Of a stretch of DNA of 59,408 nt, positions 8,460 to 56,408 are shown piece after piece. Position 1 is the first letter of the stretch. The number at the start of each line of letters is the position of its first letter. Under the pieces are notes generated by a model that was not told the origin of the DNA, searched no databases, and worked only from the letters and a program-made list of their open reading frames with translations. A program made the position numbers and the translations under genes. The DNA comes from Actinomycetes bacterium (lineage in GTDB: Bacteria > Actinomycetota > Acidimicrobiia > Acidimicrobiales > CADCSY01), in NCBI GenBank assembly GCA_031398745.1, contig JANNNX010000078.1, positions 1-59,408 on the forward strand, in the 5' to 3' direction.

Positions 8460-9737
<1,278 letters not shown>

Positions 9738-9770
9738 GGTCGGGTTCCCCTCCTCGGATCGGCTGGTGAA

Positions 9771-11824: not shown

Positions 11825-11910
11825 AGGGGGCGCAGTGTACGGGTCGCGCTCCGGGCCCCGAACCTCCTCGCGACCCGGAGCGTCGAGGGCCCCGTCACCA
11901 CCGGCCCCGC

Positions 11911-12129
11911 TCAGTCCTCGAGGCGGAAGCCCACCTTCATCGTCACCTGGAAGTAGTCGGGGCGGCCGCCGGCGCCGAGATAGCCCCGCACCTGGGTCAC
12001 CTCGAACCAATCCAGGTGCCGCAACGTCTCGCCGGCGCGGGCCAGCCCGTTGCGGATGGCGGCGTCGGCGCCGTCGGGCGACGTGCCGACGATCTCGGTG
12101 ACCTTGTAGGTGGCGTCGTGGTCGGGCAT
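11911..12129 (-). CDS. Dodecin-family flavin-binding protein
   Basis: MPDHDATYKVTEIVGTSPDGADAAIRNGLARAGETLRHLDWFEVTQVRG...QVTMKVGFRLED is the typical dodecin signature. The start is at an internal Met. Confidence 0.8.
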   Translation of the reverse strand: MPDHDATYKVTEIVGTSPDGADAAIRNGLARAGETLRHLDWFEVTQVRGYLGAGGRPDYFQVTMKVGFRLED

Positions 12130-12278
12130 CGGACCCCCAGGCTCGTCGTGCCGACGCGGTGCCGGCAACAGCAATCGGACCGTGAGTTCCCCTCAACCGC
12201 CGTGGCGATACGCCCCTAGGGTCCAGCGGATGTTCGCCCCCGGCGCCGCCGCCCTGCCGTCGGCCACGGGGTGGCGTC

Positions 12279-13082
12279 GTGGCCGCTGACTTGGGCCTGG
12301 CCGAATCCGCCGCAGTGCTGGCTGCCGGCCTCGGCGCCGGCTTCATCAACACCATCGCGGGATCCGGGTCGTTGTTGACCTTCCCGACGCTGCTGGCGCT
12401 CGGCATCCCGGCCCGGACCGCCAACATGTCCAACACCGTCGGGTTGGTGCCCGGCTCTCTCAGTGGAGTGGTCGGCTATCGACGGGAGCTGGTCGGCCAG
12501 GGACGGCGGCTGGCCGTGCTGGCGCCGGCCGCGGCCGTCGGCGGCATCGTCGGCGGGCTCCTGCTGCTGGTGCTCCCGGCCAGCGCCTTCGAGGTCGTGG
12601 TTCCGTTCCTGGTGGCTCTGTCGGTCGCCCTGCTGGCGGCCCAGCCCCGCTTGCAGCGCTGGCTCCTCGAGCGCCGCGGGGCCGCCGGCCAAACCAGCGA
12701 CGGCACGGCTGCCGACCAGCACCACGGCGCGCTGCTGGTCGGGTCGATCGGACTGGTGGCGGTGTACGGCGGCTACTTCGGCGCCGCCCAAGGGGTGATC
12801 TTCGTTGCCGTCCTCGGAGTTTTCCTGGTCGATTCGCTCCAGCGGATCAACGCCACCAAGAACCTCCTGGCGCTCATCGCCAACCTGGTGGCTGCGCTCC
12901 TCTTCGTCACCCGCGGGGGGATCGCCTGGGAGGTCTCGGGGCTGATCGCCATCGGATCGATCGCCGGCGGCCAACTCGGTGCCCACTTCGGGCGCCGCAT
13001 CCCGGCCGACACCCTCCGTCTCCTGATCATGGCCGTCGGCACGGCGGCGGCCGCCCGGCTCCTCTGGGGCCTGGCCGACTGA
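12279..13082 (+). CDS. TauE/SafE (DUF81) family sulfite/anion exporter
   Basis: 267-aa polytopic membrane protein with the two-repeat TauE architecture. GTG start. Confidence 0.7.
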   Translation: MAADLGLAESAAVLAAGLGAGFINTIAGSGSLLTFPTLLALGIPARTANMSNTVGLVPGSLSGVVGYRRELVGQGRRLAVLAPAAAVGGIVGGLLLLVLPASAFEVVVPFLVALSVALLAAQPRLQRWLLERRGAAGQTSDGTAADQHHGALLVGSIGLVAVYGGYFGAAQGVIFVAVLGVFLVDSLQRINATKNLLALIANLVAALLFVTRGGIAWEVSGLIAIGSIAGGQLGAHFGRRIPADTLRLLIMAVGTAAAARLLWGLAD

Positions 13083-37943: not shown

Positions 37944-38636
37944 ATGCCGGGCCCCGTCGAGATCGTCCCCTCCGTGTTGCCGGCCGACTTCTCGCGCCTG
38001 GGCGACGAGGTGGTGGCCCTGGCCGACGCCGGGGTCGACCGCATCCAGTGGGATGTGATGGACGGCCGGTTCGTGCCCAACCTGACCTTCGGCCCCGACG
38101 TCGTCGCCTCGGTCCGCGACCTGGTCGCGGTGCCCTTCGAGGCCCACCTCATGATCGAGGAGCCCGACCTGCTGGCCCCCCGCTTCGTCGAGGCCGGTTG
38201 CCAGTGGCTCATCGTCCACGCCGAATCGACCCGTCACCTGCACCGCAGCCTCGACCTGGTCCGCTCGCTCGGCGCACGAGCGGCGGTGGCCCTGAACCCG
38301 GCGACGCCGGCGGTGGTGGTCGAGCCCGTGCTCGACCTGGTCGACATGGTGCTGGTGATGACCGTGAACCCGGGCTTCGGGGGCCAGGCCTACCTGGGCT
38401 CCATGGAGGCCAAGGTGCGCGAGGTGGCCACCCTGGTGGCGGCGTCGGGCCGCTCGATCGACATCGAGGTCGACGGCGGCATCGCCCCGGGCACGGTGGG
38501 CGGGGCCGCCGCCGCCGGGGCCAACGTGCTGGTGGCCGGCACCGCCCTCTACCGCGACCCCGAGGGGCTGGCCCACGCGGTCGCCGATCTCCGCCACCGG
38601 GCCGAGGGGGCGTCCGCCGCTCACGCCGAGGTCTGA
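37944..38636 (+). CDS. rpe: Ribulose-phosphate 3-epimerase
   Basis: PSVLPADFSRLGDEV...DVMDGRFVPNLTFG...HLMIE...VMTVNPGFGGQ are canonical Rpe motifs. Confidence 0.9.
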   Translation: MPGPVEIVPSVLPADFSRLGDEVVALADAGVDRIQWDVMDGRFVPNLTFGPDVVASVRDLVAVPFEAHLMIEEPDLLAPRFVEAGCQWLIVHAESTRHLHRSLDLVRSLGARAAVALNPATPAVVVEPVLDLVDMVLVMTVNPGFGGQAYLGSMEAKVREVATLVAASGRSIDIEVDGGIAPGTVGGAAAAGANVLVAGTALYRDPEGLAHAVADLRHRAEGASAAHAEV

Positions 38637-41600
38637 GCCGCCTCGGCCACCTCCACCAGCCGGCACAGGGCGTTGACCAGGGGCACCTGCCTGGCCGACG
38701 AGCACCGGGTGGCCAGCAGGGCCGGGCTGGCCACCACCACGGCCAGGGCCTGGGCCCGGGACACGGCCACGTTCAGGCGGTGGCGGTCGAGGAGGAACGA
38801 GGGGCCCCGGGGGGCGTCGGCCGCCGAGGAGGCGGCCAGCGAGCAGACCACGACCGGGGCCTCCTGGCCCTGGAAACGGTCGACGGTGCCCACCCGGGCC
38901 CCGGCCGGCAGGGCCTCGGTGAGCCGGTTGACCTGGGCGTTGTAGGGAGCCACGACCAGGACGTCGTCGAGGGTGAGGAATCGCTCCTGGCCGTGGCGGT
39001 CGACGAAGGTGGCACCCAGCAGGTCGGCCACCAGGTCGACCACCACCGCCACCTCCTCGTCGCTGCGGGTGCGGTTGCCGACGTGGTCGACCGGCACCCA
39101 GCGCACCCCCGTGCCGTTCAGCGTGCCCGACGCCTCCAGGTCGATACCGGCGCAGGCGTCGACCGAGCGCAGGCGGCCGTCGTAGGCCAGTTCGGACACG
39201 AACGAACACACGTCGGGGTGCATCCGGTAGGAGCGGTCGAGGAAGACGCCGAGGTCGGACCGCAACGTGGCCTGGTCGCCCAATAGGTGGCTGAGGGCCG
39301 AGGCGTCGCTGCCCAGCGGGTGGGTGCCCTTGCCCGGCTGGCGCAACTGCTGGGGGTCGCCCAAGAGGACGAGGTTGTGGGCCGCGGCCCCGGCGGCGAC
39401 GGCGTTGGCGAGCGGGAGCTGGCCGGCCTCGTCGATCACCAGGGTGTGGAGGGCACCGACCAGCGCCGGGCGGCTGAAGAGCCAGGTGGTCCCGGTGACG
39501 ATGTCGACCCTCGGGCCGGCGGCGGCCCCGGCATCCTCGGCCAACGCCGCCTCGACGACGTCGTTGGTGGCCAGCTCGACGAAGCGGTGCTCGACCTGGT
39601 CGGCCTCGTCGGCCTTCTGGAGGCAGCGCAGCGGTCGACCCCCGTCGTCGTCGGCCCGGTGGCACACCGCCTCCAGCAGGTTGGCGATGGCCTTGTGGCT
39701 GGGCCCGCTGATGCCCACGGTGTGGCCGGCCCGCACCAGGGCCACGATCAGCTCGGCGCCGGTATGGGTCTTGCCCGCCCCTGGCGGGCCCTGGACCGCC
39801 AGGCAGCCGTCGTCGAGGGCGAGGGCGAGGGCGACGGCCCTCGACGCCGGGTCGGCCTCGGGGTCGGTGGCCGGGTGCCCCCGGCCCGCGGCCGACGGCA
39901 CGAGCCGGGGCGGCCGGGCCAGGAGCAGGTCGCGCACCGCCCGGAACGGGCCGGGCTGGTCGATGCCGTGCTCCGCCACCCACTCCGCCACCCTCCCGAC
40001 CGACCGAGGCAGCTCGCCGGGGCTGATCGGAGGCCTGGGCACCACCGAGCGGGGGGCGTCGACCCGACCCTGGCGCTTCAGGTCGAGCACGCCCCCGACA
40101 CTGTCGATGGCGTGGACGGTCCCGATAGTCGCCTCGGTGGCTGGGTCGACCAACGTGTCGCCCACCCGCACCTTGTGCTCCTGGGCCGGGTCGAAGTGGT
40201 AGCGATGGATCTGCGACTGCTTCACCTGGCCGACCACGCCCTCGTATGCCAGCTCGCCGATGGCCTCGCTGTCGTCGACCAGCTGGGCGTCGGTGCGGGT
40301 CAGGCGGTCGAAGTGGGCCCACCACTCGGGCTTCTGCTCGCGGCGGTGGAAGCCGACCAGCTGGGCCAGCAGCCAGGTGGCGTGCTGGGCGGCGTCGTGG
40401 GTGGCGGGGTCGGCGGGCAGGCCGGTGCCGAGCCGGGCCGCCAACTCGGCCTCGAAGGCGTCGGCCTCGGTGACGGCCGCCGACGGGGTGCCGTCGACCG
40501 GTCCGGGCCGACCCAGCTCGGTGCCGGCCATGGCCGCCACCTCCACCCGCCGCGCCTCGAGCCAGTTCCGCAGGCCGAGCGTCGAACGGCAGTCGACGGC
40601 GTTGTAGGCCTCGATGTCGTCGAGGAGCTGCTGGTTGCCGGTTTCGAGCCACTCCTCGTAGACGACGATGCTCGACCCGCCGTCGCTCACCGTGCCGTCG
40701 CGGCCGTCGAGGTAGAAGGCCTCGAGCTTCTTGAGGCCGTAGCCCTCGAGCGAGGTCCGAAGGCCGTGGCGGACGACGGCGTAGAGGTCGACGAAGGTGC
40801 GACTGCGGAGCAGCACGTCGAGCTCGGCCTGGCGGGACGCGTAACGCCCGGCCAGGCGCTTGCACGCGGTGAGCTCGTAGGGGGCGTAGTGGTACACGTG
40901 GAGGTCGGGCCAGCGGCGACGCCGCTCGACCAGCAGGTCGATCACCGCCTCGAAGGCGGTCCGCTCGGCCACCGGGTCGTGGCCCCAGTAGGCGTGGTAG
41001 GTGGGTTCGCCGGTGTCGACGGTGACCAGGCCCCAGAGGTACTCCAGCCCGCCCTCGACGGCCCATGGGTCGCCCTCCAGGTCGAGGAAGACGTCGCCCG
41101 GCGAGGGCGCCGGCAGCCCGGCCAGGCCCAGACCCGGTCGGGGGGGAGGGAGGAGGGCGTAGCGGTCGGTTCCGTCGGCCGCGGCCCGGCGCTGGAGGCG
41201 GGCCTGGTGGCGGAGGCGGGCCAGGAAGGCGTCGCCGACCCGGGACACACGCTCGCCGTCGCCGGTCGTGGCGGCCAGGGCGGCGGCGGTGTCGATGCCG
41301 GCGGCGGCCAGATGGGCGGCGGTCGGGCCGCGCATGCCGGCCACCAGCGAGAGGTGGTCGTCGGCCCGGCGGCGCGCCTCGCAGGCCGGCGCCCACGGAC
41401 AGACCGCGCAGTGCGAGACGGGGTCGGGGTAGGTGTCGTCGGCCGGGGGCCGGTCGAGCACCGCCTCGAAGCGGTGGCGGACCGACCGGTGGTAGGCGGC
41501 GAGCTCGGCGGTGGGGTGGCGAGAGCGCTCGCCGTCGCCGGTGACCACCTCGACGTGGGTGGGGGCGACGCCCTGGATGCGCTCGACCTGCTCGGCGTAG

Positions 41601-42067
41601 GCGGTCAGCTGGAGCAGGGCCGCGGGCTTGGCCCGCCGGGCCAGCTTGGTGTCGGCCACGTCGTAGCGCCAGGGGCCGAGGGTGGAGGGCTCGTCGACCC
41701 GGAGCAGGAAGTCGGCATGGGCCCGCACCCGACCGTCGAAGAACGAGGCCTGGAAGATCACGTCCACCCCGGCGGCCATGGCCGCCACCGTCTCGGCCTC
41801 GGCGGCGGCCAGGGCGGTCGGCGAGGCGTCGAGGGGGCGAGCGATCTCCACCACCGAGTGGCCCTCGGCCCGGAGACGCTCGAGCTCGCGCCGCTCGTGC
41901 TCATCACCCCGGCGGCGCAGGACGGCCAGCTCGGGGTCGTCTTCGGGTGGGGGCTCGAGAAGACCCAGGGCCACCTGCCGATCGAGGGCGCTGCGGTGAC
42001 GGCACTCGACGAAGGCCACCAGGTCGCTGGGCGAGGTGATCAGGCGGTCGTCGGCAGTCCGGTACAT
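38621..42067 (-). CDS. Fusion of a TM0106-family RecB-like (PD-(D/E)xK) nuclease and an SF1B Upf1/DNA2-like helicase
   Basis: N-terminus has FQASFFDG...DFLL...YDVADTKLARRAKPAALLQLTAYAEQ and a C-terminal Cys cluster (CAVCPWAPAC). The C-terminal helicase carries Walker A GPPGAGKTHT, VIDEAGQ and FQGQEAPVVV motifs. 1148 aa. Confidence 0.8.
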   Translation of the reverse strand: MYRTADDRLITSPSDLVAFVECRHRSALDRQVALGLLEPPPEDDPELAVLRRRGDEHERRELERLRAEGHSVVEIARPLDASPTALAAAEAETVAAMAAGVDVIFQASFFDGRVRAHADFLLRVDEPSTLGPWRYDVADTKLARRAKPAALLQLTAYAEQVERIQGVAPTHVEVVTGDGERSRHPTAELAAYHRSVRHRFEAVLDRPPADDTYPDPVSHCAVCPWAPACEARRRADDHLSLVAGMRGPTAAHLAAAGIDTAAALAATTGDGERVSRVGDAFLARLRHQARLQRRAAADGTDRYALLPPPRPGLGLAGLPAPSPGDVFLDLEGDPWAVEGGLEYLWGLVTVDTGEPTYHAYWGHDPVAERTAFEAVIDLLVERRRRWPDLHVYHYAPYELTACKRLAGRYASRQAELDVLLRSRTFVDLYAVVRHGLRTSLEGYGLKKLEAFYLDGRDGTVSDGGSSIVVYEEWLETGNQQLLDDIEAYNAVDCRSTLGLRNWLEARRVEVAAMAGTELGRPGPVDGTPSAAVTEADAFEAELAARLGTGLPADPATHDAAQHATWLLAQLVGFHRREQKPEWWAHFDRLTRTDAQLVDDSEAIGELAYEGVVGQVKQSQIHRYHFDPAQEHKVRVGDTLVDPATEATIGTVHAIDSVGGVLDLKRQGRVDAPRSVVPRPPISPGELPRSVGRVAEWVAEHGIDQPGPFRAVRDLLLARPPRLVPSAAGRGHPATDPEADPASRAVALALALDDGCLAVQGPPGAGKTHTGAELIVALVRAGHTVGISGPSHKAIANLLEAVCHRADDDGGRPLRCLQKADEADQVEHRFVELATNDVVEAALAEDAGAAAGPRVDIVTGTTWLFSRPALVGALHTLVIDEAGQLPLANAVAAGAAAHNLVLLGDPQQLRQPGKGTHPLGSDASALSHLLGDQATLRSDLGVFLDRSYRMHPDVCSFVSELAYDGRLRSVDACAGIDLEASGTLNGTGVRWVPVDHVGNRTRSDEEVAVVVDLVADLLGATFVDRHGQERFLTLDDVLVVAPYNAQVNRLTEALPAGARVGTVDRFQGQEAPVVVCSLAASSAADAPRGPSFLLDRHRLNVAVSRAQALAVVVASPALLATRCSSARQVPLVNALCRLVEVAEAAQTSA

Positions 42068-42205: not shown

Positions 42206-42239
42206 CACATCGGGTGGGTCGGGACCTGAGTCACCCTCG

Positions 42240-42660
42240 GGCATCACTCGTCACTCCGTTCGCACCGCCGTCGCTGGGAACGGACCGACCGTGGCCAGTC
42301 GATGGTCCCGGTGTCGGACGAAGCCGCCGTCGCGGGTGACGTCGAACTCGACCACCTCGACGGCAGCCGACTCGCCAACTGCCCGGAGGGCACCGAGATC
42401 GATCCCGAAGCGACGACCATCCTGAGCGTCGTCACGTCGGAACACGGCGAGGTTCCTCTCGGTCGGAAAGCCATCCCCCAAGACGAGCCCCGTCTCGGTC
42501 CACAGCCCTTCGCTCTCCACCCCCTCGAACCAGCCGTCACTGCGCACTGCGGCCAGGGCCACCTGGATCAGACCCGCCGTCGGCTGCCCCCACCCCGCCG
42601 GCATCACATCCTCCGGGCGATTCGCCACCCGCACGACATCGCACTTGATCGCAGCCACCC
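42240..42660. repeat. Direct repeat copy A (about 420 bp, about 95% identical to 45703..46123)
   Basis: Near-identical DNA covers the 3' halves of both imm-like genes plus about 10 nt downstream (cactcgtcactccgttcgcaccgccgtcgctgggaacggaccgac...). The 5' halves are much more diverged. Confidence 0.75.
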
Positions 42661-42919
42661 AGGCCACATATCCATCGGCCTTGGTCACGATCGCCCCCGT
42701 CTGATCGACCACTAGCTCAGTAAGCCCGCTCAGCGTGGGGGTGCCGACGCTTCGCAAAACACCAAGGTTCAAAGAGAACGCTCGGTGGGCCTCCGCCAAC
42801 CCGAATACTGGCGCCACATCGTCTTTCCCAAACGAGATGTAACCCAGTTCGGGACGCTCCGTGAGGAACATCATCGAAGGCGAGGCATCGAACCACCCAT
42901 CGCCCACGTCTTGGATCAT
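42251..42919 (-). CDS. Putative immunity-like protein, paralog 2 (family unrecognised)
   Basis: About 85% aa identity to the gene at 45712..46395, and the C-terminal about 100 aa are nearly identical. The start is placed at MIQDVGDGWFD. The 290-aa track ORF over-extends. Confidence 0.55.
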   Translation of the reverse strand: MIQDVGDGWFDASPSMMFLTERPELGYISFGKDDVAPVFGLAEAHRAFSLNLGVLRSVGTPTLSGLTELVVDQTGAIVTKADGYVAWVAAIKCDVVRVANRPEDVMPAGWGQPTAGLIQVALAAVRSDGWFEGVESEGLWTETGLVLGDGFPTERNLAVFRRDDAQDGRRFGIDLGALRAVGESAAVEVVEFDVTRDGGFVRHRDHRLATVGPFPATAVRTE

Positions 42920-43227
42920 GATTTCCAACACTAGAACCTCACAGTCGAGGGCTGACAGCGCGAGAAGAGCAAGCTGTAGCGGCTGGCGCCGGCGAGCACC
43001 TGATGGATTCGCCGACGTTGCTTCACTTGACAAGAAGCACGACGAACCAGACGAGCATCCCGGCCATGCCCATCCCCACGAGCCATTGCGCCGTGCGGCT
43101 CGGGTGCCGCTGCGGGCCGCCACCTGCGAGCCAAAGGGCCAAGCCCACGGTGGTCAACGCGAGTGGGAAGGTTGGGGACGCCGCTCCCATCCTGTCGATC
43201 CATTCGACACTCGGCTTCCTCGGTGCG

Positions 43228-44394
43228 TCAGTTCGGCGGGTCGCTCTCTTCGGGGAACACCCGGGCCAGGCTGGGGACCATGCGCCGGACCGTCTGGCAC
43301 CACTTCTTCGTCCGCCTCGCAAGGAGGAGATCGCCGAGCGCCTCCCGGGCCCGGGTCCGGGCCCGGGCATTGAGCAGCGCCCCCAAAGAGATCTCGTAGG
43401 ACGACACGTCGGGCCACCACTCCTGCACCTCGCCCACCGTCAGCTCGGCTCCACCCGACGCCAGTGGCACTGCACCCTCCGGCCACCGGCCGCCGAGTAC
43501 CTCGAAGTGCCCCGGTCCGAGGCGCTGCCAGAAGAAGCCATCCAAGGCCTGGAACCACATCATCGGCCCGTGCTGGTGATAAGGCGATCGTCCGTCCGGG
43601 TTCATCGGTTTGTTGTGCCAGGCGGAGCACTTCGGCTGGGTGGCCACCACCGCATACGCCACCTCCCCGAGCTCCCGGCCGAGCTCGACCAACCGCTCGA
43701 CGTGCTCGACGAAGTTGGTCTCCGTCAGCCCGGGCCCGGCCACCATCGCCGTGAAACATGCCCATTCCGGCTCGGCGTTCACCGCCACGCCTCGCAACAG
43801 CTCATCCAGCTCGCCAGCGACAAAGTCAGCCGACGACCCCGCCGCCACCACCGACGAGGCCCGACGTCCCGCGGTGGCGAGATCAACCTGGCCGGCGTAC
43901 ACCTCAGCCAATCTGCAACGCACCAAGCCCTCGGCCTGCGACTCCAGCCACTCCACCCCCGCCGCCAACCAACCATCGACGATCGATGCCCGATCGGGCG
44001 AATCCGGATGCGGATACACGGCCAACACCACCGTCGGTCCCGTGATGAACAGCAACGAGAAGAACTCGGTGGTCGGTGGCACCGACACCACCGCATCGCT
44101 CACCCCCACCTCGACCAGATAGCCGACCAACACCTCGGCCATCTCCGCCCGCTGACCCCCCGACAGGTCCTCCGCCCCGAACAGGCCGACCACCCCCATC
44201 GGCAGCACCGTCGGACCCACCAACCTGTCGAACAACGGTTCGGTGAACCCGCCCTCGACATGGACGAAGTGGTGGAACAACCGATCGAAGGCCACCGCCA
44301 CCTGCTCGAGGGTCGCCGCCCCGCTCACGCACAGCACGACGTCCTCCTGCGCCCGAAGTGCGCTCGTCGTCCCCCGACCCACCACCACCGGCAT
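43228..44394 (-). CDS. Uncharacterised 388-aa protein (paralog of 44454..45629)
   Basis: Shares blocks with its neighbour (LGEVAYAVVATQP / GGRWPEGA / EWWPD). No signal peptide or recognisable domain. Confidence 0.5.
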   Translation of the reverse strand: MPVVVGRGTTSALRAQEDVVLCVSGAATLEQVAVAFDRLFHHFVHVEGGFTEPLFDRLVGPTVLPMGVVGLFGAEDLSGGQRAEMAEVLVGYLVEVGVSDAVVSVPPTTEFFSLLFITGPTVVLAVYPHPDSPDRASIVDGWLAAGVEWLESQAEGLVRCRLAEVYAGQVDLATAGRRASSVVAAGSSADFVAGELDELLRGVAVNAEPEWACFTAMVAGPGLTETNFVEHVERLVELGRELGEVAYAVVATQPKCSAWHNKPMNPDGRSPYHQHGPMMWFQALDGFFWQRLGPGHFEVLGGRWPEGAVPLASGGAELTVGEVQEWWPDVSSYEISLGALLNARARTRAREALGDLLLARRTKKWCQTVRRMVPSLARVFPEESDPPN

Positions 44395-44453
44395 CTCGCT
44401 ACACCCGGCCCGTCATGGCCGAGACAGCGCGGTCGCGACAGCCACGGACCCGG

Positions 44454-45629
44454 TCACGACGGGTCATCGAGACCCAAGATGCGCTGGCGGCGCTCGAATC
44501 GCCGCCGTGAGATATCCGAGCGCCGATCGGTGTAGGGATAGGCCAGCAACCGTGCCAGCAGCGCACGAGCCCGGGCCCGCACCGCGGCGTTGGACGTCGC
44601 CTGGCCGGATTGGTAGGTCGCCATGTTCCCGGTCATCCACTCCGCCATCTGGGCCGGCGAGTACCCCTGAAGCCAGATCTGGTCCGGCCACCACTCCTCG
44701 GGCTCACCCACCCGCACCTCGGCCCGACCCGGACCGACCACCTCAGCACCCTCGGGCCACACGCCGCCCAACTCCTCGAGGTGTCTCGCCGACAGCAACT
44801 GCCACCAATGGGCATCTGGCACCACCTGGTTGCACATTCCCATCGTGCTGTTGGTTGCCTTCGCAGCCAGCTCGTCGGCATCACCGGGCTCCAAGTAGAT
44901 GGCGGCGTGCCAGTCGGGCTCGGTCACGACCACTGCGTAGGAGACCTCCCCCAAGGAGCGTGCCAGGTCGACCAACGACTCCGCGTGCGCCACCGCCGTC
45001 GTGGGGGTGAGCGACATGCCTCCCAGAGCGACACTCAACACCGGCTCATGTGATGATCCCACGCCGACAACACCGACCTGCTCAGGCATGCGGCCGGCGA
45101 CCACCTGAGCGCTCATGCCCTGCGCGTGCGTGCCCTCCAACACCATCCGTACGTCAGCCAGCGGCAAGGTCGACTCCACCCCCGACCCGATCGTGATCTC
45201 GGCATCGCCCCCGACGAAGGGCTGCGCCTCCAGGAAGTCGCAGGCCGCCTCGAGCCAACCCGGCGGCACACGACCGACGTCGGTCAACCACAACCCAACG
45301 GGCACGGCCGGCGCGACCAACAACGCCACCGACATACCCCACTGCCGATACCGATACGGGTCCCGCTCCGCCGGACACACCACCACCGCATCGGACGCTC
45401 CCTGCTCGTCCAACAACGCCACCAGCCGGTCCGGCAACTCCCCCCACGCTCGACGACCTAGCGAATGCGCATCGATGATCACGAACGGGCCCTCCGGGGA
45501 TCGAACCGGCCCGATCACCAGGTTCACCGACTCCTCCAGATCGGCCTCCAGATCCGCCAGCAGCTCTCCGGCCAACACCGATAAGGCCCGAACGGCGGCC
45601 TCGACATCGACCGCGCCCTGCACCACCAA
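44454..45629 (-). CDS. Uncharacterised 391-aa protein (paralog of 43228..44394)
   Basis: About 35-40% identity to its neighbour (LGEVSYAVVVTEP / GGVWPEGA / EWWPD). Confidence 0.5.
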   Translation of the reverse strand: MVVQGAVDVEAAVRALSVLAGELLADLEADLEESVNLVIGPVRSPEGPFVIIDAHSLGRRAWGELPDRLVALLDEQGASDAVVVCPAERDPYRYRQWGMSVALLVAPAVPVGLWLTDVGRVPPGWLEAACDFLEAQPFVGGDAEITIGSGVESTLPLADVRMVLEGTHAQGMSAQVVAGRMPEQVGVVGVGSSHEPVLSVALGGMSLTPTTAVAHAESLVDLARSLGEVSYAVVVTEPDWHAAIYLEPGDADELAAKATNSTMGMCNQVVPDAHWWQLLSARHLEELGGVWPEGAEVVGPGRAEVRVGEPEEWWPDQIWLQGYSPAQMAEWMTGNMATYQSGQATSNAAVRARARALLARLLAYPYTDRRSDISRRRFERRQRILGLDDPS

Positions 45630-45702
45630 AGTGAACCCACCCGCGTCCCGACGGATCCTCGAGCGAACCCCCGCGCTAGGCGAGCCATGCGTTATCCCCG
45701 AT

Positions 45703-46123
45703 CAACACTCGTCACTCCGTTCGCACCGCCGTCGCTGGGAACGGACCGACAGTGGCCAGTCGATGGTCCCGGTGTCGGACGAAGCCGCCGTCGCGGGTGA
45801 CGTCGAACTCGACCACTTCCACGGCAGCCGACTCGCCCACCGCCCGGAGGGCACCGAGATCGATCCCGAAGCGACGACCGTCCTGAGCACCATCTCGCCG
45901 GAACACGGCGAGGTCCCGCTTGGTCGGAAAGCCATCCCCCAAGACGAGCCCCGTCTCGGTCCACAGCCCTTCGCCTTCCACCCCCTCGAACCAGCCGTCA
46001 CTGCGCACTGCAGCCAGGGCCACCTGGATCAGACCCGCCGTCGGCTGCCCCCACCCCGCCGGCATCGCATCCTCCGGACGATTCGCCACCCGCACGACTT
46101 CGCACTTGATCGCAGCCACCCAG
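45703..46123. repeat. Direct repeat copy B (partner of 42240..42660)
   Basis: See copy A. Confidence 0.75.
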
Positions 46124-46395
46124 GACGCGGACCCATCAGCCCCGGTGACGATCGCTCCCGCCTGATCTACCACCAGGTCGGTCACGCCGCTCAGCGTGGG
46201 GGTGCCGACGCTTCGCAACGAGCCAAGCCTCAACGAATAGGCCGCGCGCCCACCCTCCAACGCGAATACGGGGCGACCGGGACTGCCCTCTCCAAACGAG
46301 ACGTAACCCAGTTCAGGGCGCTCCGTGAGGAACATCATTGATGGCGAGGCGTCGAACCACCCATCGCCCACGTCGCGCAGAATTACCTCAAGCAT
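45712..46395 (-). CDS. Putative cognate immunity protein of the RHS toxin (paralog 1)
   Basis: 227-aa ORF starting 10 nt after the RHS stop on the same strand. It is duplicated at 42251..42919. Confidence 0.55.
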   Translation of the reverse strand: MLEVILRDVGDGWFDASPSMMFLTERPELGYVSFGEGSPGRPVFALEGGRAAYSLRLGSLRSVGTPTLSGVTDLVVDQAGAIVTGADGSASWVAAIKCEVVRVANRPEDAMPAGWGQPTAGLIQVALAAVRSDGWFEGVEGEGLWTETGLVLGDGFPTKRDLAVFRRDGAQDGRRFGIDLGALRAVGESAAVEVVEFDVTRDGGFVRHRDHRLATVGPFPATAVRTE

Positions 46396-46405
46396 ATCTC
46401 GTTCC

Positions 46406-49400
46406 TTATATTGGCGGATTCATCCGCTGTGTAGAGCACGCAGTTACACTCGAGTTCTTGCAGCCACTAGGGATAAAGATTTCAGGAAGCCCACCGCTGG
46501 TATCTTTGAATCCTGGGTAGATCTTGGTCTCAAGAGGGACCGCTGGCAGAACTTTGCCAATCGTTCGAACGTCGACGAGCAGACCGGTCGTAAGGCGATC
46601 ACCTGCGTTTTTCGGAGGATCAGGCAGCCCGGCGTAGAATCGAAAGGAACGATATCCAAACTGTCTGTCCCATGCGATCGGGTCAACGAAGGTCCAAGAC
46701 CTACCGTCACGCTGTGCCTCTCCACCGTGTGCTCGATAGATAACGAGCCCATAGTTGCCATCGCTGTCCTCGCCTGCCACACACCATGAACGGTATCGAC
46801 GGCACTCCGTCTGCAGCGCCTCCAGCTTGTCTTGGTCCTCTCGGCGATTGTCCTCTTCGGCACGGCAAGCGAAGACGCAAAGTTTAGGTAGATCGGGCAG
46901 GTCGGGCAGATCGGGCAGTCGGCCAGGAAGGTCAGGGAGATTTGGCAGGTTCGGTAGGTCAACCCCGATGGTCGCTGCCAGATACGCCAGTGCCGCCACC
47001 CCCACGGCGACAACGACAACGGCGCCGATGACCGCGCCGACTACCGCACCGCCCGCTGCGACCGCCCCACCAAGGGCAGCTGCCGCAGGGGGGACACCGA
47101 CGAATGCAGGGCTGAACACTCCGTCGCTCATCGAGTACATGCCGGTGGGGTCTGCGCGGTCGATCGGGTCGTTATCGGCGTAGTGGTAGCGGTAGGCCAC
47201 CGTGGGTGTGCCCGACACCCCACCGAGAGGGTCGGTGGTGGTGAACGCGGCCGTGGTCGGCTGGTAGTCACGGGCCCGCAGGTGGATCAGGTCGTCGACC
47301 ACCACCTCCCCCCGGTAGCCCAACTGCGGGGCGTAGGTCGAGGTCCCCGAGGCCTTGCCCCACATGTCATAGGACGTGGCCCGGGCCACCGACGCCGTGG
47401 CTGAGGTCGACAGGACCGACCCGTACACGTCGGTCGCCAGCGCCGAGGTGGTCGAGCCCTTACGCATGGCTACCCACCCCATGGTTCCCCCGACTAGATC
47501 GGTGATGGCCGACCCCGTGGTCATGCCGGTGAGCTGGGCCACACCGCCGGCGGTGTCCCAATCCAAGGTCGTCGAGGTCACCGAGGCCCCGGTGCTGGCC
47601 ACGCCCACCAGGTTGCCAGCCGGATCGTAGCTGCGGGTCTCGGTGGTCGAGCCCGACGACGACACCTCCGTCAGCGACGACAACCGGCCGGCCTCGTCAT
47701 ACACGTAGCTGGTGGCGTTCGACCCGGCCGACTCCGACACCCGTCGACCGGCCTCGTCATAGGCGTAGCTCGTCGTCACCGATCCCGCGGTCGAGGACGT
47801 GAGCTGCCCGGCCGCGTCATAGGCCCAGGTGGCGGTCACCGAGTTGCCCTTCTTCTCCTGCACCCGCCGCCCGAGCGCGTCGTAGCTCCAGCGCTGGGCG
47901 CTGCCCGACGACGGCTGGCGCACGGTGATCTGGCCCGCCAGGTCGTGGGTGTAGGTGGTGGTGGCCCCGGCGGTGGTCTCGGTGGCCACCCGCCCCGCGC
48001 TGTCGTAGCCCAGGGTGGTGGAGCGGTTGGCGCCGGCCAGCACCTGGTCGAAGCCGGTCACCCGCCCGCCGGTGTACGTCCACGTCCGGCTGCCGCCGAC
48101 CACCGCCTCACCGGTGACCCGACCGTCGGCGTCATAGGTGTATGTCGCCAACGCCGCCGTCGGCGAGGTCAGGTTGCTGAACGACACGTCGTCCACGGCG
48201 ACCTGGTGCGCCCCGCCGCTGACCCGTACGTAGGAGACCTTGGTGGCGCCAGGGTCGACCACCGCGGTGTCGGTCACCTCCGTCGACCACGCCACCGGCT
48301 CTCCGGCGGCTACGTCCCACGACTTGACTCGCACCGTGGTGCCCTCGACCCGAAAGCGCAGGCCCCGCTCACTCAGGCCCGTGGCGACGGTGAAGGTGCC
48401 GATCTGGGTGGTCGTCGTGCCGACCTTCCGATAGAGCGAGCCGGTGCTGGAGCTGTTGGCCACCTCGACCCAGTAAGAACCAGTCGACGATGACCGGCCG
48501 TACACCCGGAACTTTGCCGACGACGATGCGTCCTCGAACCGGTAGGTCAGTGCCACCTCCGAATCGGTGGTGGTCGTGCCCTTGGCGCTGATCGTCGCCG
48601 TGCTCGACCCAGTTGACCCGGTGGACAAGATGGCCTCGTTGTCCTCGATCGTCACCGAGGCCCCGGTGCCAGCGCTCACACCCCACTTGTTCGTGTCGGG
48701 GGCGGAGCCGTCGCTGCCGGTGAAGGCGTCGGCCATGGTCTCGGCCGCCGTGATGGTCGAGAGCCGCCCGGCAGCGTCGTACTGGTAGCGCTCGATCGAG
48801 CCGTCGGGGCTGCGCATCGAGGTCCGGCGACCGGCGACGTCGTAGGTGTAGCTGGTGGTCCGTCCCCCGGGGGTCACCTGCTGCGTCTGGGCCCCGCCAG
48901 CGTCGTAGGCGTAGGTGGTCGTGCCCGAGGCATCGGTGATGCTCGTCACCCAACCGGCGGCGTCGTGGGTGTAGTCGACCTGGCTGCCGTCGTCGTAGGT
49001 GCGCGTCGTCAGCTGGCCGGCGGCGTCGAAGGTGTCGGTGGTCGACCGACCCGACGGGTCGACGGTGGTGCTGAGGCGACCGGCGTCGTCGAAGCCCGTC
49101 GTAGTAACCCGTCCCAGCGGGTCGGTGGTCTCGGTCTGCTGGCCGGCCGCGTCATAGCCGTAGCTGGTCACGCCGCCCAGGGCGTCGACCATCGAGGTGC
49201 GCCGACTGCGGCTGTCGTAGCCGTAGGTCGTCAGCTTGCCCAGCGCGTCGGTGGCGGCGGTCTGGCGACCATCGGCGTCGAAGGTGTACGTCGTCGTCCC
49301 CGCGCCGGTCTTGGTCACCGATACGAGCTGGCCCTTGGCGTCGTAGCCGTTGGTGGTGACCACCCCGGCGGAGTCGGTCATCGTGGCCACCCGCCCGGCG

Positions 49401-49798
49401 GAGTCGTAGGTGCTGGCGGTGACCAGGCCCGACGGTGACGTCACCGACAGCTGGTTGCCGTCAGCGTCGTGGACATAGGTCGTCGTGCCCGAAGCCGTGG
49501 TCACCGCCACCAACCGGCCGGCGGTGTCGTAGGCATTGGTCGAGGTGTTCCCGGCCGCATCGGTGGTCGTCGCCACCCGTCCGGCCGGGGTGTAGGTGGT
49601 GGTGGCCACGCCACCGCGGGCGTCGGTCTCGCCGACCACCCGGCCGAGGGCGTCGTAGCTGGTCGACACGACGTGGCCGGCTGGGTCCGTGACCGACGAC
49701 TGGCGTCCGGCGGCGTCATAGGCCGTGGTCGTCGTGCGACCGAGCCCATCGGTGGTGGTGACCTCGCGTCCGGCGGCGTCGTAGCCGGTGGTCGTCAC
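46406..49798 (-). CDS. RHS/YD-repeat polymorphic toxin, C-terminal portion: YD-repeat shell, RHS core end motif and a variable C-terminal toxin domain
   Basis: Dozens of YDxxGR repeats. RHS boundary motif YRYHYADNDPIDRADPTGMYS. Then a Gly/Ala/Val-rich hydrophobic segment, an (LPD/LPN)n linker and a final domain of about 170 aa with lower-GC DNA. It is contiguous with 49716..52064 through a 1-nt frame change. Confidence 0.85.
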   Translation of the reverse strand: MTTTGYDAAGREVTTTDGLGRTTTTAYDAAGRQSSVTDPAGHVVSTSYDALGRVVGETDARGGVATTTYTPAGRVATTTDAAGNTSTNAYDTAGRLVAVTTASGTTTYVHDADGNQLSVTSPSGLVTASTYDSAGRVATMTDSAGVVTTNGYDAKGQLVSVTKTGAGTTTYTFDADGRQTAATDALGKLTTYGYDSRSRRTSMVDALGGVTSYGYDAAGQQTETTDPLGRVTTTGFDDAGRLSTTVDPSGRSTTDTFDAAGQLTTRTYDDGSQVDYTHDAAGWVTSITDASGTTTYAYDAGGAQTQQVTPGGRTTSYTYDVAGRRTSMRSPDGSIERYQYDAAGRLSTITAAETMADAFTGSDGSAPDTNKWGVSAGTGASVTIEDNEAILSTGSTGSSTATISAKGTTTTDSEVALTYRFEDASSSAKFRVYGRSSSTGSYWVEVANSSSTGSLYRKVGTTTTQIGTFTVATGLSERGLRFRVEGTTVRVKSWDVAAGEPVAWSTEVTDTAVVDPGATKVSYVRVSGGAHQVAVDDVSFSNLTSPTAALATYTYDADGRVTGEAVVGGSRTWTYTGGRVTGFDQVLAGANRSTTLGYDSAGRVATETTAGATTTYTHDLAGQITVRQPSSGSAQRWSYDALGRRVQEKKGNSVTATWAYDAAGQLTSSTAGSVTTSYAYDEAGRRVSESAGSNATSYVYDEAGRLSSLTEVSSSGSTTETRSYDPAGNLVGVASTGASVTSTTLDWDTAGGVAQLTGMTTGSAITDLVGGTMGWVAMRKGSTTSALATDVYGSVLSTSATASVARATSYDMWGKASGTSTYAPQLGYRGEVVVDDLIHLRARDYQPTTAAFTTTDPLGGVSGTPTVAYRYHYADNDPIDRADPTGMYSMSDGVFSPAFVGVPPAAAALGGAVAAGGAVVGAVIGAVVVVAVGVAALAYLAATIGVDLPNLPNLPDLPGRLPDLPDLPDLPKLCVFACRAEEDNRREDQDKLEALQTECRRYRSWCVAGEDSDGNYGLVIYRAHGGEAQRDGRSWTFVDPIAWDRQFGYRSFRFYAGLPDPPKNAGDRLTTGLLVDVRTIGKVLPAVPLETKIYPGFKDTSGGLPEIFIPSGCKNSSVTACSTQRMNPPI
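46886..46960. repeat. Imperfect 6/12-nt tandem repeat encoding a DLPNLPNLPDLPGRLPDLPDLPDLPKL linker
   Basis: gatcgggcaggtcgggcagatcgggcagtcggccaggaaggtcagggagatttggcaggttcgg, coding on the minus strand. Confidence 0.7.
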
Positions 49799-52064
49799 CT
49801 CGCCCCAGCGGGTTGGTCACCGACGTCTGGTTGCCGTCGGCGTCGTATGCGTAGGTCGTCTCTCGACCCAGCTCGTCGGTCGAGCGCAGCAAGCGCCCGA
49901 GGACGCCCCAGGTGTTGGTGGTCGTCGTCCCGTCAGGGTTGGTGGTGGTCACCAGCTGACCCCGGGAGTCGTACTCATAGCTGGTCACATGGCCCAAAGG
50001 GGTACTGGTGGAGGCGGTACGGCCGTGGGCGTCGTAGATGTTGGTGGTCACGCCACCCGAGGGGTCGGTCGTGGTCACGAGACGACCGACGGCGTCGTAG
50101 GCGTAGGCGGTGGTCTGGCCCGCGGGGTCAGTCGTGGTCAGCACCCGACCACCCCCGTCGAAGGTCCAGGTGGTGACACGACCGGCTGCCGTCGTCTGCT
50201 GAGTCCGGTTACCGGCGGCGTCGTATTGGTAGGTGGTGGTCCCGGCCGCAGTCGTCGAGCTGGTCATCCGTCGGGATGCGTCGTAGGAGTAGGTCGTGGT
50301 CACGCCGTCGGCATCGGTCGACGAGGTCACCAGCCCGTCGGAGCTGACGTAGCTGGTCGTCTGCCCGACGTGGTCGGTGACCGACGTCGGTACCCGGCTC
50401 GATCCGTCGTACGTGTAGGTCGTCGTCCCCGACGCCGGCGACGACGTCGAGGTGACCCGATCGAGGGCGTCGTAGGTGGCGGTCGAGGTGATGCCAGCCT
50501 CGTCGGTGGCGGTGACCACGTTGCCGTGCGCGTCGTAGGTCTGGGCCACGGCCTGGTCGAGCCGACCCACGGCGGCCACGACGTTGCCCGACGCGTCATA
50601 GGTCCGACTGAGGACACCGCCAACGGGGTCGGTGGCCTGCGTGACCCGAGCATTGACGTCGTGCTGGTAGGTGACGACCTCGCTCGATGCCGACTCGGTC
50701 ACCGTGGTGGTGCCGGTGTCGTCGTCGTACTCGAACGTCGTGGTCGAGGTCCCCGGACCGGCGTGCTGGGCAAGGACCCGCCCCCGGGAGTCGTAGGTGT
50801 TGACGGCGACGACCCTGCCCGTGGCGTCGGTGATCGACGCAATACGTCCTGCGGCATCGAGAGAATATGCGGTGGCTCCGGCGCTGGGCGTGGTCACCGA
50901 CACGAGGCGGTCCGACGAGTCATACGCATAGGTGGCGTTTCGACCGTCCGACGATTCGACATTGGCCAACCTCGCAGAGGCGGTGTAGGTGAACGCCAGA
51001 GATCCACCGGATGAAGAACTGACCTCGGTCACCAGACCGTCGACATCTCTTGCGATGGTGATCGATTCGCCCTCGGCATCACTCTGGGCAACCAGCAAGC
51101 CCTGGTCGTCGTAGGTCCACACCTCGCCGGAATACCAGGTGAGCGTCCAGGTAAGCGTCCAGCTGCTGTCACGGTGCTGGGCCAGCTCGCCGTACTGGTC
51201 ACCCGGGCGAACGAAGACGGTGCCGTCCGTCTCGTAGGTCACCTCTCGGCCATCGGGGAGTACCAGCGCGGCGGAGCCGCCGGTCTGCAACGCCACCGTC
51301 GAGTCGTAGGCGCCCCGCCAGCCGACCCCCATCGCCCCCGAGGTGAGATCGCGCGAGTTGTAGGTGGTCGTCCAGGCCAGGCCGAAGGCATCGGATGCCC
51401 CCGCCAGATCGGTGCTCGACAGCACGAAGTTCCCGGACGCGGTGTCCACCGGGTCCGACGCCGTCATCTGACCCGATCGATAGCCCAGCGTCGAGCGCAC
51501 CGGCACCGTGGTGGCGCAGGTTTCCGTCGGGAGACCCGCGAACGCTCCGGTCGGCGAGGCCACCTCGAGTCGCACGGTGTCGCACGCGTAGTTGTCGGAG
51601 TCGAAGAGTCCGATTCTCGGAGCGTCGTCCCGCAACCCCGACGACAGCTGCGTCGCGTACCGGGACAGACCGGAGAAGCGGACCTCCCGCTCCACGCCCT
51701 CGATGACGACGTGACCGGGAGTGGTGAGCACGTCGATCAGCAAGGACTCGTCGGCGGATCCATATCCCGAGCTGCTCACAAGGAACCCGTCGAGACAGGA
51801 GGCGTCCACGTCGATGCGGAACGCACTGGCTGTACTCGCGTCGGCGAGCACCGCCGTGCACGACGTGGTGCCCGTCGGCGTCACCGAGGCCTCGTAGGAG
51901 AAGTACTGATCGACCTCCCCCGTGGTCAGGTTCAGGCTCACGATGGGATCAGCAGCTGCCGGCACCGTCGCTAGGGGCTGGATCACGGCCAAGGCGGACG
52001 ACAGCGCGGACAGAGAAACCCCGACCCCAACCCCCATGCGATGCATGGATCCGACCATAGACAC
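49716..52064 (-). CDS. RHS/YD-repeat polymorphic toxin, N-terminal portion: Sec signal peptide, N-terminal domain and the start of the YD-repeat shell
   Basis: Signal peptide MHRMGVGVGVSLSALSSALAVIQPLATVPAAA. RHS shell-opening motif DPVDTASGNFVLSSTDLAG. YD repeats (TYDASGNVV, TYDAHGNVV, YAYDADGNQ). After ...SVTNPLGR the frame decays to junk, while the +1 frame continues as TTTGYDAAGR. Confidence 0.85.
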   Translation of the reverse strand: MSMVGSMHRMGVGVGVSLSALSSALAVIQPLATVPAAADPIVSLNLTTGEVDQYFSYEASVTPTGTTSCTAVLADASTASAFRIDVDASCLDGFLVSSSGYGSADESLLIDVLTTPGHVVIEGVEREVRFSGLSRYATQLSSGLRDDAPRIGLFDSDNYACDTVRLEVASPTGAFAGLPTETCATTVPVRSTLGYRSGQMTASDPVDTASGNFVLSSTDLAGASDAFGLAWTTTYNSRDLTSGAMGVGWRGAYDSTVALQTGGSAALVLPDGREVTYETDGTVFVRPGDQYGELAQHRDSSWTLTWTLTWYSGEVWTYDDQGLLVAQSDAEGESITIARDVDGLVTEVSSSSGGSLAFTYTASARLANVESSDGRNATYAYDSSDRLVSVTTPSAGATAYSLDAAGRIASITDATGRVVAVNTYDSRGRVLAQHAGPGTSTTTFEYDDDTGTTTVTESASSEVVTYQHDVNARVTQATDPVGGVLSRTYDASGNVVAAVGRLDQAVAQTYDAHGNVVTATDEAGITSTATYDALDRVTSTSSPASGTTTYTYDGSSRVPTSVTDHVGQTTSYVSSDGLVTSSTDADGVTTTYSYDASRRMTSSTTAAGTTTYQYDAAGNRTQQTTAAGRVTTWTFDGGGRVLTTTDPAGQTTAYAYDAVGRLVTTTDPSGGVTTNIYDAHGRTASTSTPLGHVTSYEYDSRGQLVTTTNPDGTTTTNTWGVLGRLLRSTDELGRETTYAYDADGNQTSVTNPLGRGDDHRLRRRRTRGHHHRWARSHDDHGL

Positions 52065-55661: not shown

Positions 55662-56294
55662 TCAGCTGCCGGCCTCGCCCCGCTTCGAGATCACGTGGTC
55701 GATCATCCCGTAGTCGGCGGCCTCGAGGGCGGTGAACCAGCGGTCGCGGTCGGAGTCGGCCTCGATCTGCTCCGGGGACTTGCCGGTGTGGAAGGCGATG
55801 CGCTCAGCCATCGTCCGCTTCACGTAGGCCATCTGCTCGGCCTGGATGGCGATGTCGGCCGCTTGGCCCTGCACCCCCCCGGAGGGCTGGTGCATCATGA
55901 TCCGGGAGTGGGGCAGGGCGAAGCGCTTGCCCGCCGCGCCGGCGCACAGCAGGAACTGGCCCATCGAGGCGGCCAGGCCCATGCAGATGGTGGCCACGTC
56001 GGGCTTGATGAATTGAATCGTGTCGTAGATGGCCATCCCCGAGGTGACCACACCGCCGGGGCTGTTGATGTAGAGCCAGATGTCGCGGGTGTCGTCCTGG
56101 CTCTCGAGGAACAGCAGCTGGGCGATGATCAGGTTGGCCACCGTGTCCTCGACCTCGCTGCCGAGCACCACGATCCGGTCGGTGAGCAGGCGGTTGAAGA
56201 CGTCGAACTGACCGCCGGGAAAGGAGTCGCGAGCGGTCGGGCCGAGCGCGTCGAGGAGGGGTTGGTCCATGGGGCGGCAGGCTAGCGGGACCAC
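55662..56294 (-). CDS. clpP: ATP-dependent Clp protease proteolytic subunit (paralog B)
   Basis: 210 aa with [18 protein letters not shown] and a ClpP catalytic-triad context. It is unlinked from the tig-clpP-clpX locus. Confidence 0.9.
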
Positions 56295-56320: not shown

Positions 56321-56403
56321 GGCGGGCGTGGCGGAATCGGCAGACGCGCCAGGTTTAGGTCCTGGTCTCTTCGGAGGTGGAGGTTCGAGTCCTCTCGCCC
56401 GCA
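56321..56403 (+). tRNA. tRNA-Leu (anticodon TAG) with a long variable arm
   Basis: GCGGGCGTGGCGGAATCGGCAGACGCGCCAGGTTTAGGTCCTGGTCTCTTCGGAGGTGGAGGTTCGAGTCCTCTCGCCCGCA. Confidence 0.8.
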
Positions 56404-56408
56404 CGCAG

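Follow-up and report, generated by a model that had tools for sequence, protein, structure and literature searches.

A frameshifted RHS gene with a predicted ADP-ribosyltransferase-fold tip and a candidate immunity gene in an Acidimicrobiales contig

We examined computationally a 59,408-nt contig from an Actinomycetes bacterium of the order Acidimicrobiales (JANNNX010000078.1, positions 1 to 59,408, assembly GCA_031398745.1; this whole stretch is referred to here as the window), focusing on a large RHS gene on its minus strand and on A1, the gene directly downstream of it. We consider it likely that this locus is a polymorphic RHS toxin cassette, in which the C-terminal tip of the RHS protein would consume NAD(P)+ and A1 would serve as its antidote. 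The tip belongs to a family of C-terminal toxin domains for which an ADP-ribosyltransferase (ART) type of fold is predicted, and A1 opens with a rare motif that recurs behind related toxins.

The RHS gene and its reading frame

In the assembly the gene appears as two minus-strand open reading frames (ORFs), 49716-52064 (782 aa) and 46406-49798 (1130 aa), which share 83 nt in different frames. With one G fewer in the stretch GGGGCGAGG, they join into a single protein of 1885 aa that has only its terminal stop, and all residue numbers of the RHS protein given below refer to this joined product. The removable G is in either the G4 run at 49803-49806 or the GG at 49798-49799. The junction DNA is CCG CTG GGG CGA G/GTG ACG ACC ACC GGC TAC and the joined protein reads ...NPLGRVTTTGYD..., or has the variant PLGEV if the surplus G sits in the G4 run; either way NPLG(R/E)VTTTGYDAAGR stands at the junction and the repeat register is preserved. 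DNA repeat families along the gene recur at multiples of 63 nt, the only exceptions (127 and 64 nt) occurring across 49798-49806. Because this lattice breaks only at the junction, the two ORFs form one RHS gene carrying a +1 insertion, and they jointly encode one protein as the preliminary description of this locus had proposed. The parts of the gene are as follows.

51951..52064, minus strand: signal-peptide-like N-terminus, aa 1-38, read from sequence (MHR, hydrophobic core, AAA/DP)
51456..51950, minus strand: N-terminal domain without family, aa 39-203
51234..51455, minus strand: DUF6531 (RHS plug region), aa 204-277, Pfam PF20148 at E 2.3e-16, opening with DPVDTASGNF
47372..51233, minus strand: RHS/YD repeat shell, aa 278-1564, about 50 units of 21 aa (Pfam RHS_repeat, TIGR01643, 63-nt lattice), interrupted by the frameshift and an insert
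49798-49806, minus strand: site of the +1 insertion that splits the gene
48146..48745, minus strand: non-repeat insert of 200 aa, aa 1107-1306, within the repeat region
47138..47371, minus strand: Rhs-associated core, aa 1565-1642, NCBIfam TIGR03696 at 48.3 bits (cut-off 32.5), ending DPIDRADPTGM
46958..47098, minus strand: Gly/Ala/Val-rich hydrophobic stretch of 47 aa, aa 1656-1702, with room for one or two membrane helices
46883..46960, minus strand: (D/N)LP repeat linker, aa 1702-1727, read from sequence
46409..46882, minus strand: toxin tip of 158 aa, aa 1728-1885, with two helices and an ART-fold core (46409-46750) carrying R1777, S1789-W-T, R1808 and E1861

A search with hidden Markov models (HMMs), which the preliminary description had named as a check, bore out its identification of an RHS/YD locus, with matches to RHS_repeat, TIGR01643, DUF6531 and TIGR03696 far beyond chance. 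RHS_repeat matched at E 4e-79 and 2e-91 over 28 stretches, TIGR01643 matched at E 9e-123 with 22 double units, and DUF6531 and RHS_repeat were the only Pfam families on the joined protein. Both motifs named in that description are also in place, DPVDTASGNF at aa 204 and the core-end autoproteolysis motif (YRYHYADNDPIDRADPTGMYS, at aa 1624) in the TIGR03696 match that ends with DPTGM, and cleavage by autoproteolysis is expected after this last motif, at aa 1642. Two of its figures did not hold. The count of more than 60 YDxxGR repeats was too high, as the strict pattern occurs 15 times, YDxxG 27 times and relaxed matches 43 times, and the HMMs give 22-28 double units; and the region past the core motif has 243 aa rather than about 170, made up of an 11-aa spacer, the hydrophobic stretch (Kyte-Doolittle values up to 2.84 over 19 aa), the LP-repeat linker and the tip. 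By each sequence criterion tested, the broken frame excepted, the protein is a member of the RHS family.

At the N-terminus, n-, h- and c-regions can be read by eye as MHR, a hydrophobic core of 25 aa (Kyte-Doolittle 1.87 at aa 10-28) and AAA/DP at residues 38/39. The start codon is uncertain (GTG 52064, ATG 52046 or ATG 52037). Between these candidate starts and the divergent start of a family 2 glycosyltransferase (GT2) gene (ATG 52089) there are 24-51 nt, which implies that the promoters overlap coding regions or that the transcripts are leaderless. The domain at aa 39-203 matched nothing in Pfam (E<=10) or among PDB sequences, and no PAAR, VgrG, LXG, WXG or cell-wall-binding domain was found in it. 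A scan of genome contigs with the RHS N-terminus returned only distant RHS genes (Myxococcales, Minicystis, Saccharimonadales, Phycisphaeraceae). The 200-aa insert contains no RHS repeat and likewise had no match in Pfam (E<=10) or among PDB sequences; inspected by eye, it seems beta-rich and lectin-like and might project from the shell as a surface or receptor-binding domain.

Base composition changes sharply along the gene. The repeat body and the core have G+C contents at third codon positions (GC3) of 0.91 and 0.92, against 0.64 in the hydrophobic and linker part and 0.55 in the tip. The tip is thus foreign in composition, and a fall right after the core is what tip displacement in RHS genes classically leaves behind.

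The broken frame counts against reading the locus as a working cassette, since the intact ORF of an RHS toxin is not found in the assembled sequence. The RHS gene may be a pseudogene, or the insertion may be a sequencing error. The first of these is quite possible, if not the option that we favour: were the frameshift real, the toxin would not be made or exported, and the locus would be left as protective (orphan) immunity genes, the only ones to stay in use. It would be in keeping with such decay that the insertion is present in the assembly, that the downstream ORF alone would have no signal peptide, and that the exact sequence of either RHS ORF is absent from the searched protein collection while neighbouring genes of the contig are present there as NCBI entries, which would fit a record treating the RHS gene as a pseudogene. 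However, the insertion is the sole defect in 5.6 kb, GC3 is still 0.84-0.91 and the 63-nt lattice is undamaged. The insertion also lies in or beside a G4 run, a typical place for sequencing or polishing errors, and the window probably belongs to a metagenome bin, given that 42728-45399 are 100% identical to a Logan contig (L013) from run SRR20217204. Programmed frameshifting was dropped as an explanation, there being only a G-run and no slippery heptamer, and misassembly by repeat collapse is unlikely given that the repeat copies are merely 60-84% identical.

Family, fold and likely chemistry of the tip

The tip had no match in Pfam (E<=10), NCBIfam, PADLOC or PDB sequences, and a word-indexed search of 5.8 billion proteins returned nothing, not even the tip itself. 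An exhaustive HMMER search of 1.84 billion representatives, by contrast with these blanks, found 39 proteins at E<=1e-3, the best at 1.7e-11 with 38% identity. In these homologues, which range from 100 to 5000 aa, the match is always at the extreme C-terminus, and their carriers include RHS proteins (P0008, P0013, P0040) and one PD40-propeller protein. A profile built from 36 trimmed domains retrieved 55 further members; Pfam recognised no domain in the toxin part of any of them, and one carries PT-HINT. The last ~115 aa of the cargo, judged from these alignments, are a member of an unnamed family of C-terminal toxin domains with more than 90 fetched sequences. The preliminary description had stated that the C-terminal region fits no nameable toxin family; this stands for names, and what changes is that the region now has a family, with an ART/TNT-type fold predicted for it.

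The family consensus is VYRVxGGxAxxxGRSWTPVDP...YRxxAGLPNxNxG...RxALPLDGNxGGLPExxIP. In tip numbering, the conserved residues are R50, G53, S62, W63, T64, P68, R81, A84-G-L-P87, N92, G130-G131 and E134. The window tip falls in a subfamily (alignment A8) whose C-terminal tail reads GCxNxxxxxC. It has six cysteines, and its GCKNSSVTAC pair, kept in the subfamily in the form just given, suggests a disulfide in the exported form. Relatives come from soils, sediments, gut and marine samples, and family members sit in orphan toxin/immunity arrays behind large RHS genes; a case in RefSeq is plasmid NZ_CP080783.1 of Aliiroseovarius crassostreae, where the label given by PGAP is 'RHS repeat-associated core domain-containing protein'. 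The domain was seen on RHS, PT-HINT, PD40 and small secreted scaffolds, as is the case for C-terminal toxin domains that are exchanged horizontally. In some family members of about 180 aa (P0046, P0047, P0048, P0059 and P0076), a signal-peptide-like segment directly precedes the toxin domain, which implies that the domain also exists as a small free-standing secreted toxin.

We modelled the tip with AlphaFold2 from an alignment of 49 sequences. The model is confident (predicted local distance difference test (pLDDT) 88.2, predicted template modelling score (pTM) 0.84) and has two N-terminal helices and six strands, with a strand order compatible with ART and the ART-like split beta-sheet 'palm'. 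R50 is placed on strand 44-53 (the end of strand 1), S62-W-T on strand 62-64 (strand 2) and E134 on strand 133-136 (strand 5). The closest structural neighbours, with their figures, are these.

Tne2 (6b12): 8.2
Serratia Rhs1-CT (6xtd): 7.9
Tse6: 6.3
AfNADase: 5.4
Fusarium NADase: 5.4
TNT: 4.4

Neighbours lower in the ranking are mostly of the ADP-ribosyltransferase superfamily (TreTu, Tpt1/KptA, MbcT, OspC3/CopC, PARPs, diphtheria toxin and exotoxin A, and further RES/ParT, SPN, RhsP2, TreX, pertussis toxin, C3, Scabin, DarT and TccC3). This confident model indicates an ADP-ribosyltransferase-type split beta-sheet fold for the tip, closest to the TNT-type NAD(P)+ glycohydrolases. A Foldseek search of the model against PDB was not significant. 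Profile comparisons were negative both with a TNT-family protein (hhalign probability 0.85%) and with a HYD1-ART protein, and for these reasons we assign the tip at the level of fold only. Consistent with this, Pfam TNT (PF14021) matched neither the tip nor 31 relatives, and the family profile matched none of 6b12, 6xtd, 4zv4 and 4qlp among PDB sequences. By sequence the tip falls outside TNT, Tne and every ART family of Pfam, and what the model gives it in common with the TNT family, Tse6/Tne1 and AfNADase is the fold, with Glu instead of Gln.

Serratia Rhs1-CT, of the 6xtd type, is an NAD(P)+ glycohydrolase, and TNT-type NADases need a common aromatic residue, an Arg and a Gln for toxicity (PMC10539506). 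On the model, NAD(P)+ hydrolysis is the most likely chemistry of the tip, given its short core and a set of top structural neighbours made up wholly of NADases. Two features of the sequence keep any assignment of chemistry tentative. The conserved acidic residue of the family is a Glu (E134, conserved together with W63 and R81), whereas TNT-type NADases typically have a Gln; and the ExE/QxE of R-S-E ADP-ribosyltransferases is absent, as GGLPE has neither an acid nor an amide at position -2. It is possible, although we consider it rather unlikely, that the tip is instead a true ADP-ribosyltransferase acting on a macromolecule (protein, rRNA/tRNA or DNA), as do Tre1, Tre23, TreTu, RhsP2 and DarT, which modify macromolecules by ADP-ribosylation. 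This is the main rival for the chemistry because the R / S-x-T / E pattern of the tip matches the R-S-E clade of ART toxins (Tox-ART-RSE, Zhang et al. 2012; C3, Tre1), in which an Arg on strand 1, a Ser-x-Thr on strand 2 and a Glu on strand 5 are likewise found. Domains of this clade also occur on RHS and other polymorphic toxin scaffolds.

The downstream gene A1 and the partners of related toxins

A1 (45712..46395, minus strand) encodes a candidate immunity protein of 227 aa with two tandem repeats of about 113 aa, 29% identical (an internal duplication), and an N-terminal GDGWF. The preliminary description was exact in placing it 10 nt past the stop (TAA) of the toxin gene on the same strand, and an AAGGAA motif precedes its start. 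The protein is acidic (isoelectric point 4.8, grand average of hydropathy 0.02), and neither a hydrophobic segment nor a signal peptide is evident in its sequence.

We looked up the next gene for four members of the window tip's subfamily. In three of them it opens with GDGW[FW]; at the fourth locus, an RHS gene (L054), the partner is a different protein of 256 aa. The genes that share the opening are listed here with that of the window.

A1 (window): 227 aa, gap of 10 nt after the toxin stop, opening ILRDVGDGWFDASP
L051 partner: 252 aa, overlapping the toxin stop by 4 nt, opening LVADQGDGWFNDLP
L052 partner: 125 aa, gap of 12 nt after the toxin stop, opening VQYDGDGWWDETP
L053 partner: 267 aa (called gene extended upstream), gap of 3 nt, opening VLCDQGDGWFSGFP

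The motif is at residues 10-17 of A1, and A2, a paralogue of A1 further along the island, opens likewise. GDGW[FWY] is missing from 62 other downstream proteins, from 102,831 aa of six-frame window ORFs and from fetched proteins totalling 31,440 aa. The partners at L051 and L053 are homologous to each other (26% identity over 223 aa, E 1.9e-6); the score of A1 against a profile of these two was reached by 5 of 3000 shuffles, and hhalign aligned A1 to the profile with E 0.0043, spanning 18 columns. On these comparisons A1 is very probably a member of the partner family that goes with the window's toxin subfamily, with shared sequence established for the motif. As GDGW[FW] recurs in the genes right after the three closest toxins that were checked, A1 is probably also the cognate immunity partner of the tip, as the preliminary description had suggested from the arrangement of the two genes.

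Most relatives of the toxin have another partner. At most toxin-domain loci, and at least 16 of them (L001, L006, L016, L017, L019, L022, L025, L028, L031, L034, L037, L041, L043, L044, L048 and L050), the next gene encodes a protein of about 122 aa (PDFYLASSEGY...ATRHxGDSLFPIxEWPVFVHV...IAWAELY), here called ImmX, which no Pfam model matches. These loci come from unrelated samples and include the A. crassostreae plasmid. The remaining toxin loci have a partner family of 57-74 aa or one of at least six others, and overall there are at least eight unrelated downstream families. A relationship between ImmX and A1, as a whole or in halves, is unsupported (hhalign probability 0.1-0.5%, hmmsearch E>1), and we do not claim one between ImmX and the L052 partner, whose collinear alignment to the N-terminus of ImmX reaches only E 0.038. 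At L008:3326-4162 an ImmX-like N-terminus is fused to a degenerate toxin domain in which the conserved Arg is missing ('VYCVSSG'); this may be a decoy or a decayed module.

Four results weigh against the pairing of A1 with the tip. A1 has a GC3 of 0.76, which differs from that of the tip. Its likeness to the other partners is limited to about 18-33 residues (hhalign probability 8%). ImmX, the commonest partner, was not found in the window by an HMM search of all six frames. Lastly, of the two structure predictions that the preliminary description had put forward, only that of the tip succeeded; the A1 structure, computed from an alignment of A1 and A2, was unusable (pLDDT 29).

It is possible that A1 is not an immunity protein at all, and that A1 and the following genes of the island are an unrelated cluster, with immunity absent or provided by B1 or B2.

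44454..45629, minus strand: B1, orphan of 391 aa, GC3 0.83, 32% identical to B2
43228..44394, minus strand: B2, B1 paralogue of 388 aa, with the same sequence on Logan contig L013
43023..43190, minus strand: 55-aa ORF with two hydrophobic segments, GC3 0.82, also predicted as a gene of 55 residues on Logan contig L013
42251..42931, minus strand: A2, A1 paralogue of 226 aa (85% identity), candidate orphan or second immunity gene, 3.4 kb beyond A1

Such an unrelated cluster would be consistent with the composition and the failed model of A1, with its lack of relationship to ImmX, and with the finding that A2 is its sole homologue in a search of 5.8 billion proteins. However, we consider it unlikely. 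The rare GDGW[FW] opening recurs behind the three closest checked toxins in unrelated metagenomes, the absence of ImmX is not unusual in a toxin family that pairs with so many unrelated downstream families, and no B-like gene was seen near any of more than 40 family loci.

Delivery, related systems and the surrounding genes

In RHS proteins, as known from Tc and type VI secretion system (T6SS) Rhs structures, the repeats enclose the cargo in a closed shell and the core cleaves after DPxG(L/M). If the toxin is made, the RHS protein of the window would, judging from its N-terminus, be exported by Sec, its YD repeats would form such a shell around the cargo, and the aspartyl protease of the core would cut after DPTGM. 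Delivery would be contact-dependent, with the Gly/Ala/Val stretch and the LP linker possibly helping the tip to cross the membrane of a neighbour. This role in entry is pure speculation and is a further weak point of the proposed cassette, as only 20 of 44 family members have a comparable stretch ahead of the toxin domain and several of these stretches are signal peptides of small free-standing toxins. In the cytoplasm of the target, the tip would consume NAD(P)+, most likely by hydrolysis and possibly by ADP-ribosyl transfer, and growth would stop. In the producer, A1, cytoplasmic and acidic, might bind the tip and block its active-site cleft, by analogy with the known NADase immunity proteins, which block this cleft and are, for the TNT-type NADases, mutually unrelated (PMC10539506). 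A2 would be a diverged spare copy, and B1 and B2 further orphan proteins of the island.

Among known systems, WapA/WapI of Bacillus subtilis resembles the window locus: it has a signal peptide where the window protein has a signal-peptide-like N-terminus, and an immunity gene immediately downstream where the window has the candidate A1, and both have RHS repeats and a polymorphic C-terminal toxin, with no dedicated secretion system nearby. WapA carries cell-wall-binding repeats and tRNase tips, whereas a Pfam search found no cell-wall-binding domains in the window protein. The Rhs NADases Rhs1-CT of Serratia marcescens Db10 ('Tne3'; 6xtd) and Tne2 of Pseudomonas protegens (6b12) have no detectable sequence similarity to the tip. 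Their conserved set is F / R / Q, that of the window tip family R / SWT / R / E. They are delivered by T6SS via PAAR and prePAAR, whereas the window protein has a signal-peptide-like N-terminus and no PAAR, and their hydrophobic stretch is at the N-terminus, not after the Rhs core. None of the features of a T6SS Rhs effector (PAAR/prePAAR or a VgrG-binding N-terminus, with T6SS or Eag genes nearby) was found for the window protein. It is very improbable that the protein is instead the TcC-like part of an insecticidal, anti-eukaryotic Tc toxin complex, a reading suggested by no TcA/TcB (SpvB, beta-propeller) gene or domain in the protein or the window and opposed by its own signal peptide (read from sequence), its DUF6531 plug and a tightly coupled downstream partner gene of the kind typical of interbacterial systems.

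The toxin domain, ImmX and the GDGWF proteins have no model in Pfam, NCBIfam or PADLOC. We found no publication on them, although text searches are blind to sequence and another name may be in use. RHS toxins whose tips consume NAD+ are an active field of study, and Tne1 to Tne5 were each introduced as a family of their own. The definition of further ART-fold NADase families continues, as with Tne5 (PMC13285283). The locus points to one more ART/NADase-fold family, with about 90 fetched relatives and no fewer than two partner families that can be recognised, ImmX and the GDGWF proteins. Tentatively, the tip and the GDGWF proteins might be a new NAD+-targeting toxin/immunity family (a 'Tne'-like or ART-like clade) on RHS, PT-HINT and free secreted scaffolds, in which the hydrophobic segment often seen ahead of the toxin would act as a self-contained module for membrane entry, letting a Sec-exported RHS protein intoxicate neighbours without a T6SS, a type VII secretion system (T7SS) or a contact-dependent inhibition machine. 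The system as a whole is well known in kind; fold and likely chemistry are familiar, the gain is incremental and the gene is possibly inactive. Nevertheless, with names for the toxin and partner families, many proteins now labelled hypothetical or 'RHS repeat-associated core domain-containing' would be better annotated. The toxin family also offers a case for studying how one toxin fold may be neutralised by unrelated immunity proteins, and the locus allows one to ask whether a hydrophobic segment after the Rhs core aids the entry of cargo into target cells.

Of the island genes beyond the toxin, A1, A2, B1, B2 and the 55-aa ORF had no match in Pfam (E<=10), NCBIfam, PADLOC, PDB sequences and profiles, plasmids or metagenome contigs. 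Between A1 and A2 the ratio of nonsynonymous to synonymous divergence (Ka/Ks) is 0.28 (0.10 in the C-terminal half), which indicates that both are protein-coding and under purifying selection. Ks is 0.52 in the N-terminal repeat and 0.16 in the C-terminal repeat, which marks the C-terminal halves as far younger and points to gene conversion or a mosaic history. Their DNA similarity runs about 31 nt beyond the stop (42220-42250 versus 45681-45711). B1 and B2 are good in coding composition and have the conserved motif GGxWPEGA...VGExxEWWPD; at a guess, each could protect against some other toxin as an orphan immunity gene.

The island is flanked by core chromosomal genes, including tig-clpP-clpX, mreBC-pbp2-rodA, kup and terC, and by genes for urea/branched-chain and phosphate ATP-binding cassette (ABC) transporters, an extracytoplasmic function (ECF) sigma factor, rpe, a nuclease-helicase, the GT2 enzyme, an FtsX/ABC pair, a second ClpP and a tRNA-Leu. 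When the 36 larger window ORFs were compared with Pfam, no component of a T6SS, T7SS, two-partner secretion (TPS) system or Tc complex was found, and there is no envelope marker among the window genes. Compared with PDB sequences, ClpP came out as near to the E. coli protein as to that of Mycobacterium. An Rfam scan returned tRNAs only. The nuclease-helicase (38621-42067, minus strand) is a protein of 1148 aa with PD-(D/E)XK nuclease, RNase-H-like and superfamily 1 (SF1) helicase domains, and its gene follows that of A2 after 183 nt in the same orientation; the PADLOC match of this protein, MkoA-like at 8e-42, covers the helicase part only. One of the two clpP genes stands in the tig-clpP-clpX row (8460-12436, minus strand), and the other is solitary (55662-56294, minus strand), beside tRNA-Leu(tag) (56322-56404, plus strand) and about 3.6 kb from the start of the RHS gene.

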